Made by a program: the position numbers and the translations under genes. A stretch of DNA of 64,000 bases from an uncultured Ruminiclostridium sp. (GTDB lineage: Bacteria > Bacillota > Clostridia > Oscillospirales > Ruminococcaceae). The DNA is taken from positions 349 to 64,348 of the forward strand of contig CAYVZH010000010.1 of NCBI GenBank assembly GCA_964456025.1. Direction: 5' to 3'. Under the pieces are notes generated by a model. It was given only the letters and a program-made list of their open reading frames with translations, was not told the DNA's origin and ran no database searches. The number at the start of each line of letters is the position of its first letter. Position 1 is the stretch's first letter. Positions 20,025 through 24,495 of this stretch are shown piece after piece.

Positions 20025-20028
20025 CCAA

Positions 20029-20128
20029 TACTATTTCACTTCCAATGTGTAGACAAAAATTCTGCACAAAATCCATTTATCCAAGATTTTGTTTGAATTT
20101 TTGTACACATTTAGGTCGTGAAATAGTC
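20029..20128 (-). mobile_element. Family A palindromic MITE-like element (reverse orientation)
   Basis: TACTATTTCAC..GTGAAATAGT termini; the interior is the reverse complement of 1890-1990; begins 5 bp after the rnfA-like stop. Confidence 0.7.
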
Positions 20129-20261
20129 AACTTCCTTTTGCGAAACGAAAACTTTTTTGCAGGGTATTTTCGTTCCCTTTCTCTATGCTTCTTCGTTTTA
20201 AATAAGGTTTGTGCATTTTTTGTTCCTTTGGCTGACCAAAGGAACCGAAAGTTCACCTCGG

Positions 20262-20335
20262 CAAAAGCTTTGCTTGCGCCGCGTCCGTGCGGCGCCTTGG
20301 GCTTTTGCCTGCAAGCCTCCTGCTTGCCCTCTGCG
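20262..20335 (-). repeat. Family B sub-module (reverse)
   Basis: Reverse complement CAGGAGG..CCCAAGGCGCCGCACGGACGCGGCGCAA matches 3345-3400 and 63560-63615. Confidence 0.65.
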
Positions 20336-20732
20336 CTGTTCTCAACCCGTTTGTACAAAGAAGAAAGGTAAGAGAAAAGAACAAGGCTCGTTTCTTTTTA
20401 AATCCTATCTTAATTTCTCCAAGCTTCCCCCATTGTACAATCAAGTTTGAACTGTGCAGTCCTCAATTGTACTGCACAAAGACACAGAACACCCCCCTTG
20501 CAGTCAATCAAGAGCGACGGAGGTATTCGGTTCCGGCAGAGATCGGTAAAAAATAACAGGAAATTGCCGCTGTACGGATTTTCTTCCCCGGGTTTATTAT
20601 AACTCCTCTCGGCGCTTACTCTGACCGCTTTTTTCGTCCCGCAAGTTTAAAAGATGAAAAAAGAGTTGAGGAGAAGCGACGAGAGGCGACTTTCCGCCGC
20701 TTTGGTCGGTCAAAGCGGCAAAAATAAACAAG

Positions 20733-20815
20733 CTTTCGCTTCCTTTCGCCGCCGAAAGGAGGCAGGGGTGTGGGGACGGCGTCCCCACAATAAAATAATT
20801 TTTCTCTTATTATCT
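20733..20815 (+). repeat. Family B arm (solo)
   Basis: TTTCGCTTCCTTTCG..CGAAAGGAGGCAGGGGTGTGGGGACGGCGTCCCCAC plus T-rich tail. Confidence 0.65.
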
Positions 20816-20847
20816 CTCTTATTTCCCACAAAAAGAAGGTGAATCCC

Positions 20848-22017
20848 ATGAAAAACCGCAGGCGCTACGGACGGAAGATCAAGCGCAGCAAGACCAATCT
20901 CTACAAGCGAAAGAAAACGCCGGCGCAGAAGGCGTTCGGTACCGTGCTGCTCATTATCGGGGTCTGCGCGGCGGTTTTTCTCGGCTACTGTCTCGGGAAG
21001 CCGCTTCTCGAATTCCTTGAGAAAGCCGCTGAAAGGGAACAGCCGGAATGGACGCCGCCCGTGACGTCCACGACCCCCGCGGAGACCGAGCCGGACGGAA
21101 CCGACGCGCCGGACGCAGCCGAAACGGAGGAAACGAAGCCTGCGGCGGAAGAAAAAACCAAAGCGATCACCGCCCCGAGCACCGCGCTTTTAAACTCCTC
21201 GTCTCTCTCGGCGTTCGCGGTGCGGGCGAAAAACGACGGCTACAACACCGTGCTTTTCGAGCTGAAGGACGAAGGCGGCTGCCTGCATTACGCTTCGCCG
21301 ACCGCCGCCGCGATGAGCGAGGAGCTGATCCTCTCGCCGCTTACCGCCGCGGAAATTTCCGAAACCGTCCTGAACGCGGGACTGACGCCGATCGCCGCCG
21401 TTTCCGTACTCTCGGACGACGCGGGCTGCCGCGCGAACCCCGATCTGAGCTATAAGATCGTGGGCGAGAACGTTTCCTGGCTCGATTACAGCGGCGATAT
21501 GCCCATTCGCCACGTCAACCCCGAAAGCAAGGCGGCCGCGGAGTATCTGAACGCGATCGTCGGCGAGCTGAACGACGCGGGGATCACGGTTCTCCTGAAA
21601 GACCTCGCTTTCCCCGATTTTCAGCCGTATGACCGCAGATATATCGCGGAAAAATATTTTGAGGAGAGCCGAAGCGCCCTTCTCGCCGCGCTCGTCCCCG
21701 AGAATGTTCCCGTCGAAATGCTTGCGGAGGACGTTTTAGCGGAAAATTACGGACGGACGGCGGAGCTTCTGCGCGAGCGAAGCTTTACCAGCCGTGAAAA
21801 CGCAAGTATCGCGGTACGGATCCGCCGCGAAAGCTTCCCGACCTCCGAAGGCTATCCCGCCGACGCGGCGGGGCTGATCGAGGATCTTCTCGCGCGGATC
21901 CGCTTAAAAACCGGCGCGGTCACGGTCATTCCCGTGATCGAAAGCGGCGGCTTCTCGGCGGCGGAGCTTTCCTCGATCCAGAAGCTTCTGACGGATCGGA
22001 GCTATATTATCGCATAA
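20848..22017 (+). CDS. Membrane-anchored putative glycoside-hydrolase-like (DUF4015-like TIM barrel) protein
   Basis: Basic N-tail, one TM helix, Pro/Thr linker, NTVLFELKDEGG resembling xxDxKDxxG of DUF4015-type proteins. Confidence 0.55.
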   Translation: MKNRRRYGRKIKRSKTNLYKRKKTPAQKAFGTVLLIIGVCAAVFLGYCLGKPLLEFLEKAAEREQPEWTPPVTSTTPAETEPDGTDAPDAAETEETKPAAEEKTKAITAPSTALLNSSSLSAFAVRAKNDGYNTVLFELKDEGGCLHYASPTAAAMSEELILSPLTAAEISETVLNAGLTPIAAVSVLSDDAGCRANPDLSYKIVGENVSWLDYSGDMPIRHVNPESKAAAEYLNAIVGELNDAGITVLLKDLAFPDFQPYDRRYIAEKYFEESRSALLAALVPENVPVEMLAEDVLAENYGRTAELLRERSFTSRENASIAVRIRRESFPTSEGYPADAAGLIEDLLARIRLKTGAVTVIPVIESGGFSAAELSSIQKLLTDRSYIIA

Positions 22018-22082
22018 ATTTAATTTTCGGAAATATTCCGAGATCTTTCGACAAGCTGTCACCGGAGAAACAGAAAAACCGC

Positions 22083-22111
22083 TTGATTTTTTCCGGAAAA
22101 TATAGTATACT
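22083..22111 (+). promoter_or_regulatory. Sigma-A promoter of the RNHCP-yajC unit
   Basis: TTGATT-17-TATACT; the spacer contains the palindrome TTTTCCGGAAAA. Confidence 0.6.
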
Positions 22112-22351
22112 AAGAACATGTCTTCACAAGAGAATTGCACATCTTTTCGGAAAAATTGCCGCAGACTTTGTCAAATTTCCTTGAAATCCGAAAGGATTCC
22201 CGCAAAAATTTTCCGCGTCTGCAACAATTTTTCTCCGAAAATCCGCACAATCCTCTTATGAAGACAAGTTCCAAGACGATCTCATATCCAGAGATTTTTC
22301 GGGCGGCACGCCTGCCCTAAAAATAAAACCCGAAGAAAGGAGTAATGATTC

Positions 22352-22399
22352 ATGATGAAAAATGCGATTGCGGCGGTGCGGGAGGACTGCGCCGGTTAA
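22352..22399 (+). CDS. Putative leader peptide MMKNAIAAVREDCAG
   Basis: AAGGAG RBS 9 nt upstream; its 3' end overlaps a stem competing with the anti-SD of the downstream gene. Confidence 0.6.
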   Translation: MMKNAIAAVREDCAG

Positions 22400-22451
22400 T
22401 CCCGCGTTCCTCCCGAAGAATGAAGAAAAAACCGCTTCATTTCAGGAGGAA
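22379..22451 (+). promoter_or_regulatory. Putative translational attenuator (anti-anti-SD / anti-SD / SD)
   Basis: CGGGAGGA (22379-86) pairs with TCCTCCCG (22408-15); TTCCTCC (22407-13) alternatively pairs with the RNHCP SD GGAGGAA (22445-51). Confidence 0.6.
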
Positions 22452-22453
22452 AC

Positions 22454-22912
22454 ATGAAAAATCAAAATGATTACGGAAACAGGCGGCTGAATCTGCCCTT
22501 TTCCTGTAAAAACTGCGGTTATCCCGTAACGCCCGAGGGGGCGGGAAGCGGACACCGCAACCACTGTCCGAACTGTCTGTACAGCCTTCATCTCGACGAG
22601 CTTCCCGGCGACCGCGCTTCCGACTGCGGCGGGCTGATGGAGCCGATCACGGTGTGGGTAAGGAAAGGCGGCGAATGGGCGATTCTGCACCGCTGCAAGC
22701 GCTGCGGAAGGATCGTCTCGAACCGGATCGCGGCGGACGACAGCCCGGTAAAGCTGATGAGCATCGCGCTGAAGCCCCTTTGCGAACCGCCGTTCCCGAT
22801 CGAACGGATCCGGGAACTGACCGAAACGGAGGACACGTCCGAAACAGACAAAATCACAAAAACCGAAGAACATACGCGCCCGACAGGCGCAAAAGAAAGG
22901 AACAAGACATGA
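22454..22912 (+). CDS. RNHCP domain-containing zinc-binding protein
   Basis: CKNC..HRNHCPNCLYSLHLD..GDRASDCGGLMEP..HRCKRCG..NRIAADD. Confidence 0.92.
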   Translation: MKNQNDYGNRRLNLPFSCKNCGYPVTPEGAGSGHRNHCPNCLYSLHLDELPGDRASDCGGLMEPITVWVRKGGEWAILHRCKRCGRIVSNRIAADDSPVKLMSIALKPLCEPPFPIERIRELTETEDTSETDKITKTEEHTRPTGAKERNKT

Positions 22913-23268
22913 CCGAAGCAATGACATTTTTAGCGGCAACCGCAGAGGATTCGACCGCGGCGGCAAGCGGCACCTCCATGCTGATGACCTTTATCCCGCT
23001 TGTGCTGATGCTGGTAGTTTTTTATTTCCTGCTGATCCGTCCCGAGAAAAAGCGGGCGAAGAAGATGAAGGAAATGCTCGATAATTTACAGGTCGCGGAC
23101 GAGGTCGTGACGACGGGCGGCATTATCGGACGGGTTCTGAGCGTAAAGGACGATACCGTCCTGATCGAGACGGGCGGCGACCGTACCCGGATCCGGATCC
23201 TCAGAAGCTCGATCGCCGAGAACCGCACTACGCATGACGATGTGGAATCGGTAACGATTAAGAAGTAA
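22909..23268 (+). CDS. yajC: Preprotein translocase subunit YajC
   Basis: FYFLLIRPEKKR..DNLQVADEVVTTGGIIG; start overlaps the upstream stop (ATGA). Confidence 0.92.
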   Translation: MTEAMTFLAATAEDSTAAASGTSMLMTFIPLVLMLVVFYFLLIRPEKKRAKKMKEMLDNLQVADEVVTTGGIIGRVLSVKDDTVLIETGGDRTRIRILRSSIAENRTTHDDVESVTIKK

Positions 23269-23294
23269 CCCCCGAAGAACAATCGGGGAGCGGT

Positions 23295-23332
23295 AAAAAA
23301 CCGCACGGAAGCCTGCGCGGTTTTTCCTTTTT
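23295..23332 (+). terminator. Intrinsic terminator after yajC
   Basis: AAAAACCGC..GCGGTTTTT stem with T tail. Confidence 0.65.
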
Positions 23333-23376
23333 TCGTTATCTCCTTCCAAAGATTTTTAAGCACAAAGGGGCTGTCT

Positions 23377-23928: not shown

Positions 23929-24495
23929 ATGAACGATCTGATTTTGACAATTCCCGCAAAGGAGCACGAGGCGCAAGTAATGGCATTTCGCGAGGAAATG
24001 CAAAGAAACCGAGAGGGCTTTTACGGGTGTTCCGGGCTGAATAATACGTCCAATTATGATGATTGGCTTGATTTTGAAGGACGATTTATGCGCTTTGGCT
24101 GGACACCGTCAACGACATATCTCGGCATTCGTGTCTCTGACGGTCTGCTTATCGGAATGATTGACCTCAGACATGAACTCTCCGGTTTTTTGCTAAAATA
24201 TAACGGTCAAATCGGATATAGCGTTCGACCCTCGGAGCGTGGAAAGGGGTACGCCGCTCTTATGCTGTCGCTTGTACTCAAAGAAGCAGAAAGTTTTGGA
24301 TATAAAAGAGTTCTTGTATGCTGCAACAAGGCAAATTCCCGATCTGCCAGAGTGATACAAAAGTGCGGCGGCATACTTGAAAATGAAGTTATTCACGAGT
24401 ACAGTCCTGTGGATAGACCTGATATTATCCAAAGATACTGGATTGACATAGACAGCGGTCGGAAAACGAATATTGTTCCGGAAAAAATTGAATGA
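23929..24495 (+). CDS. GNAT family N-acetyltransferase
   Basis: LIGMIDLRH..GQIGYSVRPSERGKGYA..CNKANSRSARVI. Confidence 0.9.
   Translation: MNDLILTIPAKEHEAQVMAFREEMQRNREGFYGCSGLNNTSNYDDWLDFEGRFMRFGWTPSTTYLGIRVSDGLLIGMIDLRHELSGFLLKYNGQIGYSVRPSERGKGYAALMLSLVLKEAESFGYKRVLVCCNKANSRSARVIQKCGGILENEVIHEYSPVDRPDIIQRYWIDIDSGRKTNIVPEKIE

Follow-up and report, generated by a model that had tools for sequence, protein, structure and literature searches.

The DNA analysed here is a 64,000-nt stretch of contig CAYVZH010000010.1 from an uncultured Ruminiclostridium sp., which we call the window. It contains a gene for a small zinc-ribbon protein with an RNHCP domain, located between a DUF4015-like gene and yajC. 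The leader of the RNHCP gene carries a promoter and a short upstream open reading frame (uORF) with its own Shine-Dalgarno sequence (SD1). It also carries an anti-SD segment that can pair either with a segment inside the uORF (the anti-anti-SD) or with the Shine-Dalgarno sequence of the RNHCP gene (SD2) (Table 1). This switch element is real and widespread, and it is apparently undescribed in the literature and in Rfam. We consider that it probably functions as a translational attenuator of the erm/cat type, in which the position of a ribosome on the uORF determines whether the main Shine-Dalgarno sequence is exposed.

Table 1. Features of the RNHCP locus (positions in the window; MFE, minimum free energy; MITE, miniature inverted-repeat transposable element)
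Feature	Position	Strand	Remarks
DUF4015-like gene	20839-22017		436-nt gap before the RNHCP gene; the gap holds every leader element
Sigma-70-type promoter	22083-22111	+	-35 TTGATT 22083-22088, 17-nt spacer, -10 TATACT 22106-22111
MITE-like hairpin element, ~163 nt	22111-22274	+	Arms 22114-22155 and 22230-22271; directly 3' of the -10 box
Small hairpin ATTTTTCGGGCGGCACGCCTGCCCTAAAAAT, 5' of SD1	22294-22324	+	Inverted repeat; in the window, L206, L201, L203
SD1 AAGGAG	22337-22342	+	9 nt 5' of the uORF ATG
uORF, 15 sense codons and TAA, peptide MMKNAIAAVREDCAG*	22352-22399	+	ATG 22352, TAA 22397-22399; class B
P1 hairpin	22362-22407	+	MFE fold; apical stem 22374-22381 with 22387-22394, loop GAGGA
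Anti-anti-SD CGGGAGGA	22379-22386	+	uORF codons R-E-D; perfect 8-bp complement of TCCTCCCG
Anti-SD TTCCTCCCGAAG	22407-22418	+	Complements both CGGGAGGA and the RNHCP SD
Internal hairpin ATGAAG..CTTCAT	22420-22440	+	MFE fold; lengthens the SD-sequestering helix P2
SD2 TTCAGGAGGAA, RNHCP SD	22441-22451	+	Predicted to pair with the anti-SD in the OFF state
RNHCP-domain zinc-ribbon protein, 152 aa	22454-22912	+	Pfam PF12647, E = 2.9e-38; ATG 22454
yajC, 119 aa	22909-23268	+	Pfam PF02699, E = 4.5e-30; ATG 22909
Terminator-like intrinsic hairpin and T-run, 3' of yajC	23292-23335	+	RNAfold of 23265-23345

A preliminary description of this DNA, made from the sequence alone, had proposed the promoter, the 15-codon uORF with its own AAGGAG and the two mutually exclusive pairings, and all of these are borne out. 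The promoter scores 9/12 against the consensus in a consensus scan and lies in a block, CGCTTGATTTTTTCCGGAAAATATAGTATACT, that is invariant in five relatives in which the flanking intergenic DNA has diverged. Both pairings were recovered by a repeat search, the first between 22379-22391 and 22403-22415 (13 nt, 85%) and the second between 22407-22417 and 22441-22451 (11 nt, 91%). The composite pattern GGGAGG..CCTCC..GGAGG matches the 64-kb window once, compared to a chance expectation of 0.02. The RNA folds more stably than its shuffled versions, with z = -5.3 for the whole leader and -3.1 for the core. In the fold of the free window RNA, P1 holds the anti-anti-SD and the long P2 helix buries SD2, for which the probability of being unpaired is 0.001. 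The 3' arm of P2 is the Shine-Dalgarno sequence itself, with no U-run after it. No terminator-like site is found on the + strand in 22112-22453, so that the uORF and the RNHCP gene are not separated by a terminator, and control is therefore translational.

The mechanism that we propose starts from an mRNA that would begin at ~22118 and contain a conserved core (22337-22456) consisting of the translated uORF with the anti-anti-SD CGGGAGGA, the anti-SD UUCCUCCCGAAG and the RNHCP SD UUCAGGAGGAA. In the OFF state P1, the 5' arm of which lies inside the uORF, would lock the anti-anti-SD, and the anti-SD would pair with the RNHCP SD. A ribosome located ~12-18 nt 5' of the anti-anti-SD (in the window, with the P-site near codon 6) would melt the 5' arm of P1. 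The anti-anti-SD, remaining outside the ribosome, could then capture the anti-SD and free the RNHCP SD (the ON state). Once on the last codons of the uORF or on its stop, a ribosome would cover the anti-anti-SD and enforce the OFF state. The uORF is probably translated and a physiological arrest probably occurs on it; such an arrest would report translation stress, for which an antibiotic acting on the ribosome or a defect of the ribosome is the most likely cause.

The dependence on ribosome position was modelled by masking folds, in which a footprint reaching from -12 to +13 nt relative to the first P-site nucleotide was placed at each uORF codon in each of the 149 distinct leaders collected (see below). 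The median probability of an open SD2 is 0.13 in free RNA; it rises to 0.43-0.52 for P-sites that lie 12-18 nt 5' of the anti-anti-SD and falls to 0.00-0.01 with the ribosome at the last two codons or the stop. For the leader of the window, the codon 6 (Ile) position is the only one that opens SD2, to 0.30. The earlier proposal that early stalling leaves the anti-anti-SD free needs correction: in silico, the opening is restricted to a narrow stall position (P-site codon 6 in the window) and does not extend to early stalling generally.

The leaders used for these folds were sampled from one genome per species. The one-genome-per-species scan yielded 80 RNHCP loci at 61-80% identity, all in Clostridia-type metagenome-assembled genomes (MAGs) or isolates. 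Among the RNHCP loci of other Clostridia, 55 of 79 have the switch design in the upstream 130 nt, with the same order and spacing of its parts. It consists of AAGGAG, 6-10 nt, a TTG or ATG uORF of 10-19 codons and CCGGGAGG, followed by (U)UCCUCCCGAAG, then CUUCAGGAGGA, ~8 nt and the start codon; in RNA form, the conserved segments are CCGGGAGG, CCUCCC and CAGGAGGA. The collection comprises at least 149 distinct leaders, of which 109 precede RNHCP genes and 40 precede genes of the GNAT family. The leader is also found in Peptococcaceae and Eubacteriaceae. Its cultured carriers include Oscillibacter valericigenes Sjm18-20 (L084, with a GNAT leader), Clostridium methylpentosum DSM 5476 (L043), Bittarella massiliensis (L046), Huintestinicola butyrica (L050) and Eubacteriaceae bacterium ES2 (L357). 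Viral contigs gave nearly all chance matches in a general pattern scan, together with one true GNAT leader.

Several properties of these leaders concern the uORF itself. Its start codons (TTG in 113, ATG in 31 and GTG in 5) fall in a single alignment column. Most uORFs belong to what we call class A, with a UGA-C stop exactly 2 nt 5' of CCGGGAGG; the stop codon is UGA in 131 of 133 class-A uORFs. Class-B uORFs, including that of the window, read through the anti-anti-SD and stop 8-20 nt later, and the class-B relatives have in common the peptide ..AI(V/A)..(N/S/G)RE(V/A)C... When loci were chosen by the RNA pattern alone, with no open reading frame (ORF) criterion, a Shine-Dalgarno sequence and start codon in frame with the conserved UGA, leaving an open frame of 8-20 codons, were present at 113 of 119 loci (9 and 1 in the other frames). 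uORF lengths differ by whole codons within the range 10-19. Because the frame is kept in this way and both SD1 and the start codon are conserved, we conclude that selection acts on the uORF. What is conserved in the 3' half of class-A uORFs is the nucleotide sequence (NNG GAG NNU GUN NGC UGA-C) and not the amino acids, and this sequence includes an SD-like GGAG that lies 6 nt 5' of the P-site codon when a ribosome terminates.

Two groups of loci depart from this design. The locus L206:2558-3009 encodes an RNHCP protein identical to that of the window but has lost 1 nt from the A-run of its uORF (ATGATG-AAAATG). In the shifted frame the uORF would cross the anti-SD and SD and end at a TGA that overlaps the RNHCP start codon; the sequence is either a mistake of assembly or a natural variant that is constitutive and coupled. 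Seven leaderless RNHCP loci (L030, L032, L038, L039, L044, L057 and L064) lie directly 3' of a small ORF, with an overlap of 4-8 nt in the four that were measured (L032, L038, L039 and L044). The upstream ORFs of L032, L038 and L044 are ~100-aa Mor-like helix-turn-helix genes (PF08765, near the cut-off), which are an alternative regulatory context for leaderless RNHCP loci.

The predicted helices are supported by covariation. Both the apical hairpin of P1 and the pairing of the anti-SD with the SD were recovered by RNAalifold. In a MAFFT alignment of the leaders (A1), 83.7% of the cells of the three-helix OFF structure are paired, compared to 37-48% when the 3' partners are slid, and there are 99 double-change cells, compared to 47.8 in shuffles, with none of 500 shuffles equalling the observed number. 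The P2 helix has 88.7% paired cells, with GC changed to AU in 9-12 sequences, and the P1a and P1b helices, which are the homologues of P1, also covary in A1. The ON helix, formed by the anti-anti-SD and the anti-SD, is 88% paired. It is weakly testable by covariation because it is mostly invariant, the invariant stretches being GGGAGG throughout A1 and CCTCC of the anti-SD. Compensatory changes in the ON helix nevertheless occur in L010 (CCGAGAGG/CCTCTCGG, also as CCGAGAGG/CCUCUCGG) and L070 and in L353, a Peptococcaceae leader (GTGGGAGGT/ACCTCCCAC, also as GUGGGAGGU/ACCUCCCAC). As isolated duplexes, anti-anti-SD:anti-SD has a median of -16.3 kcal/mol versus -12.4 for anti-SD:SD2. The preliminary description had suggested examining the uORF and stems upstream of RNHCP orthologues, and conservation is evident there in the recurrence of the design, in covariation and in the maintained frame. 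A second ON-state helix suggested by the MFE folds (uORF CUGGAG with CUUCAG before SD2) was rejected, as it shows neither covariation nor register specificity. Rfam 15 has no match at the gathering score in the window, and for three leaders nothing relevant was found at E <= 10 or E <= 1; the miRNA-like matches merely reflect a long hairpin.

The leader is not confined to RNHCP genes. Among the 120 matches listed in a pattern scan, ~75 precede RNHCP genes (69 confirmed by BLAST, and six ORFs cut by contig ends that start with the RNHCP N-terminus), ~40 precede a 208-aa GNAT, and 4 are chance matches. The leader-linked GNAT has the motif FWNVYRPGC(S/L)EHYV, and among solved structures E. coli YhbS (4rs2, E = 4e-9) is its closest relative. 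The GNAT leaders have a uORF of their own, typically MKKYNT(L/P)EIVG*. Because unrelated genes share the cis element, the leader appears to be a general sensor rather than a device for RNHCP autoregulation.

A connection of RNHCP with the ribosome comes from gene neighbourhoods outside the Oscillospiraceae-type loci. Our search found 3171 RNHCP homologues. RNHCP lies directly 5' of, or overlaps, a gene for a paralogue of the GTPase RsgA in Proteobacteria (Vibrio, Photobacterium and Pseudoalteromonas), Bacteroidota (Tenacibaculum, Bacteroidales and Carboxylicivirga), Petrotogales, Leptospirales, C. difficile and Eubacteriaceae (L328, L330-L350, L357, L363, L370, L372 and L384). RsgA is annotated as a ribosome small-subunit-dependent GTPase. 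In Eubacteriaceae ES2 the leader described here precedes an operon of RNHCP and an rsgA-like gene, and in Enterococcus (L354-L361) the two domains are fused in a single 446-aa protein (RsgA_GTPase, E = 1e-50; RNHCP, E = 1e-36). A ribosome-related role of RNHCP is supported by this adjacency across phyla and by the fusion, and RNHCP may act on the 30S subunit together with the RsgA-like GTPase. The ribosome-stress role put forward in the preliminary description is likewise supported by these observations, which do not prove it.

In the Enterococcus fusion genes the conserved uORF is another one, 33-35 codons long (MLSEI...GEKQxYEYxxYRKxPS*); it has a strong Shine-Dalgarno sequence and overlaps the main start in another frame (L354:1411-1512; also L355, L356, L358, L360 and L361). 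A plasmid of Streptomyces sp. NBC_00984 (L329) carries a tandem pair of RNHCP genes in a region rich in transposase and integrase genes, with an FBP-domain gene and a fragment of an aminoglycoside phosphotransferase gene 3' of the pair.

Among known systems, the leader most resembles the ermC/ermA, cat86 and cmlA attenuators. These also have a short uORF led by a Shine-Dalgarno sequence, a main Shine-Dalgarno sequence sequestered in a hairpin and no terminator, and in them, too, the sequestering strand can be captured by an upstream segment that overlaps the uORF, such that the position of the ribosome sets the exposure of the main Shine-Dalgarno sequence. The corresponding structural features, namely the SD-led uORF, the sequestered SD and an alternative pairing that frees it, are all found here in silico. 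In contrast to these attenuators, all three switching segments are mimics of SD or anti-SD sequences, the UGA-C stop of the uORF abuts the anti-anti-SD in most members, TTG is the prevailing start codon, what is conserved is the RNA, with no arrest peptide apparent, and the regulated genes (RNHCP and the YhbS-like GNAT) are not known resistance genes.

The preliminary description had also drawn a parallel to the leaders of ABC-F genes. The genes vmlR, lmo0919 and msrD respond to ribosome-targeting drugs, and their leaders share with ours a short uORF 5' of the gene. However, vmlR and lmo0919 are controlled by transcription attenuation through a terminator and antiterminator; our leader lacks a terminator in the interval from the uORF to the gene, and it is the Shine-Dalgarno sequence itself that is sequestered. 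The parallel to erm/cat translational attenuation therefore holds and that to vmlR and lmo0919 does not. The prfB and tnaC-type leaders resemble ours in that a UGA-C stop is closely preceded by an SD-like element (here GGAG, at 6 nt from the P-site codon), but there is no +1-frameshift slippery codon, Rho-dependent logic or long conserved peptide in our leaders.

Some results weigh against the attenuator reading. The 3' half of the uORF shows no sign of a conserved arrest peptide, and neither of the two regulated families is a known resistance gene family. RNHCP is also rare on plasmids; a plasmid search gave only 4 distant matches and hence nothing to suggest a mobile resistance gene. The AlphaFold2 model of RNHCP has a mean predicted local distance difference test score (pLDDT) of 65, and neither Foldseek nor sequence comparison gave a PDB match at E < 0.001. 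Moreover, the free-energy difference between the ON and OFF states in free RNA depends on the class of leader, being +1.1 kcal/mol for RNHCP class A, +4.7 for class B, -4.1 for GNAT and +4 to +6 for the window. Class-A leaders are thus nearly iso-energetic and GNAT leaders favour the ON state, so that arrest may not be needed to open the Shine-Dalgarno sequence in these two groups. In the window, on the other hand, OFF is preferred by 4-6 kcal/mol, and at equilibrium a single codon position opens the SD.

These energies bear directly on a rather unlikely alternative, a sensor of ribosome flux or of dwelling at termination that requires no specific arrest. Ribosomes lingering at the poor UGA-C stop, loaded from a weak TTG start and possibly tethered during termination by the conserved GGAG, would cover the anti-anti-SD and keep the switch OFF, and fewer ribosomes at the stop, as a result of translation inhibition, scarce functional 30S subunits or poor initiation, would turn it ON. 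Such a sensor would be consistent with the TTG starts in 113 of 149 uORFs, with the UGA in 131 of 133 class-A uORFs, always 2 nt 5' of CCGGGAGG, and with the G-GAG that is kept at the RNA level at an SD-like spacing from the terminating P-site. It would also agree with the iso-energetic or ON-favouring free RNA of the class-A and GNAT leaders and with the masking folds, in which a last-codon ribosome forces OFF, and the tie of RNHCP to a 30S-maturation GTPase would supply a feedback logic. However, class-B leaders, including that of the window, prefer OFF by 4-6 kcal/mol without a ribosome, and for this reason loss of flux alone would not induce them; in addition, the proposed pairing of the GGAG with the SD2 flank shows no covariation. 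Since the free-RNA energy difference is class-dependent, some members may read the ribosome occupancy of the uORF stop and not a drug-specific arrest.

The codons 15-9 nt 5' of the anti-anti-SD, which is the stall position that opens SD2 in silico, are mostly E-I-V, A-I-V or L-E-R-V, and they raise the possibility of an attenuator responding to branched-chain amino-acid starvation by stalls at Ile, Val or Leu codons. We regard this as improbable. The Ile position is equally often Arg, Ser, Leu or Cys, and its third base (U) alone is conserved, which argues for selection at the RNA level; there is at most one codon per amino acid in this segment; and the regulated genes are not biosynthetic.

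It is similarly doubtful that the leader is a riboswitch-like or protein-bound RNA, in which a ligand or a protein, possibly RNHCP, binds P1 (GGGA loop) and the uORF is incidental. The apical P1 hairpin is indeed conserved and covarying, but the kept frame and the conserved SD1 and start codon indicate that the uORF is under selection, and the invariant nucleotides are SD and anti-SD mimics alone, with no complex conserved core. There is also no matching Rfam family, and sharing of the leader with the unrelated GNAT family is contrary to RNHCP autoregulation. Finally, a sensor of stop-codon readthrough or release factor 2, in which leaky readthrough of the UGA-C takes ribosomes across the anti-SD and unmasks the SD, draws on the near-universal UGA-C of class A and on slightly rarer frame-0 stops before the anti-SD (13 versus 22-23 of 131), yet it is very improbable and we rejected it, as there is no overall frame-specific depletion of stops 3' of the UGA (80 versus 78 and 71 leaders have no stop as far as the main start), no fixed frame is kept with respect to the main ORF, and class-B stops are UAA and located elsewhere.

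Under the attenuator reading, the two target families invite comparison with the WblC/WhiB7 regulon of Actinobacteria, which in S. coelicolor mediates resistance to translation-targeting antibiotics and includes 16 GNATs and the RsgA paralogue SCO6149, 68-fold up on tetracycline (PMC7157823). These translation-stress-induced GNATs and RsgA paralogue mirror the GNAT and RNHCP(-RsgA-like) targets of our leader (PMC7157823). The regulon acts through a transcription factor, however, and the control described here would be a cis-acting translational switch on each gene; no RNHCP gene was seen beside SCO6149. It is conceivable, and we suggest it tentatively, that the leader is the cis sensor of an unrecognised translation-stress regulon of gut Clostridia. 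Stalling or flux on the 10-19-codon uORF would then control a 30S-directed module of RNHCP and the RsgA paralogue together with the YhbS-like GNAT, forming a functional analogue of WhiB7 assembled from per-gene translational switches.

If confirmed, the element would join the few translational attenuators known so far, as a leader class that is widespread and defined by its sequence. It would also provide a first functional handle on two orphan families, the YhbS-like GNAT and RNHCP (PF12647), for which there is no solved structure and for which the fusion and adjacency with RsgA paralogues predict a 30S-associated role. NCBIfam has no family for RNHCP or the leader-linked GNAT, and no paper on the RNHCP domain or the leader was found in the literature searched. 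Should the genes prove inducible by antibiotics or translation stress, this would bear on the tolerance of abundant commensal gut Clostridia to ribosome-targeting drugs. The near-iso-energetic design of SD, anti-SD and anti-anti-SD, with an abutting stop codon, is a compact natural riboregulator.

About half of the leader, which the preliminary description had put at ~335 nt, is an insertion. The length as such is correct, but ~163 nt of it (22111-22274) form a MITE-like element with 42-nt imperfect terminal inverted repeats that are 79% complementary. The segment is missing from L203 (93% protein identity) and replaced by other sequence in L200. Two copies of ~93% identity with different flanks occur on other contigs (L386 and L387) of MAG CAZKKZ01, which is also the source of L200, and metatranscriptome contigs contain the element with other flanks, one contig skipping 22111-22292. 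We interpret the segment as a MITE-like insertion because it is gone from L203 and has copies at unrelated loci with other flanks. What functions as the leader is the conserved promoter together with the core 22337-22456, and the MITE-like element lies outside the conserved switch.

The order Rnf - DUF4015 - RNHCP - yajC is common to five close relatives. An ATGA overlap joins the RNHCP stop with the yajC start, and a 1013-nt RNA contig of a relative covers the leader, RNHCP and yajC, ending in a hairpin and T-run beyond 23268. In this lineage yajC would be translationally coupled to RNHCP and follow its expression. Co-regulation of yajC, suggested in the preliminary description, is thus plausible here on the basis of the overlap and the one spanning RNA contig, but it is peculiar to the lineage: the RNHCP-yajC arrangement was seen in L200, L201, L203 and L206 only, and yajC was within 3 kb at none of 80 other RNHCP loci. 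No conserved operon partners were found among the 80 Clostridial RNHCP loci, the neighbours being diverse. A host-labelled RNA run gave no reads on the region, and the RNA evidence consists of a few metatranscriptome contigs of relatives.

Elsewhere in the window, a GNAT gene of the Acetyltransf_3 family (23929-24495) lies 1 kb 3' of yajC; it differs in family from the leader-linked YhbS-like GNAT and is without the uORF/anti-SD leader. An ORF-poor gap of ~810 nt (20025-20838), with no Rfam match, separates an Rnf-Nqr subunit gene from the DUF4015-like gene; the matching gap is ~105 nt in L200 and ~217 nt in L201. The promoter spacer contains a perfect palindrome, TTTTCCGGAAAA (22089-22100), which is kept in all five close relatives, and half-palindromes resembling it occur nearby at 22024-22034 and 22143-22154. 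The palindrome may be a transcription-factor operator that provides an extra layer of transcriptional control.

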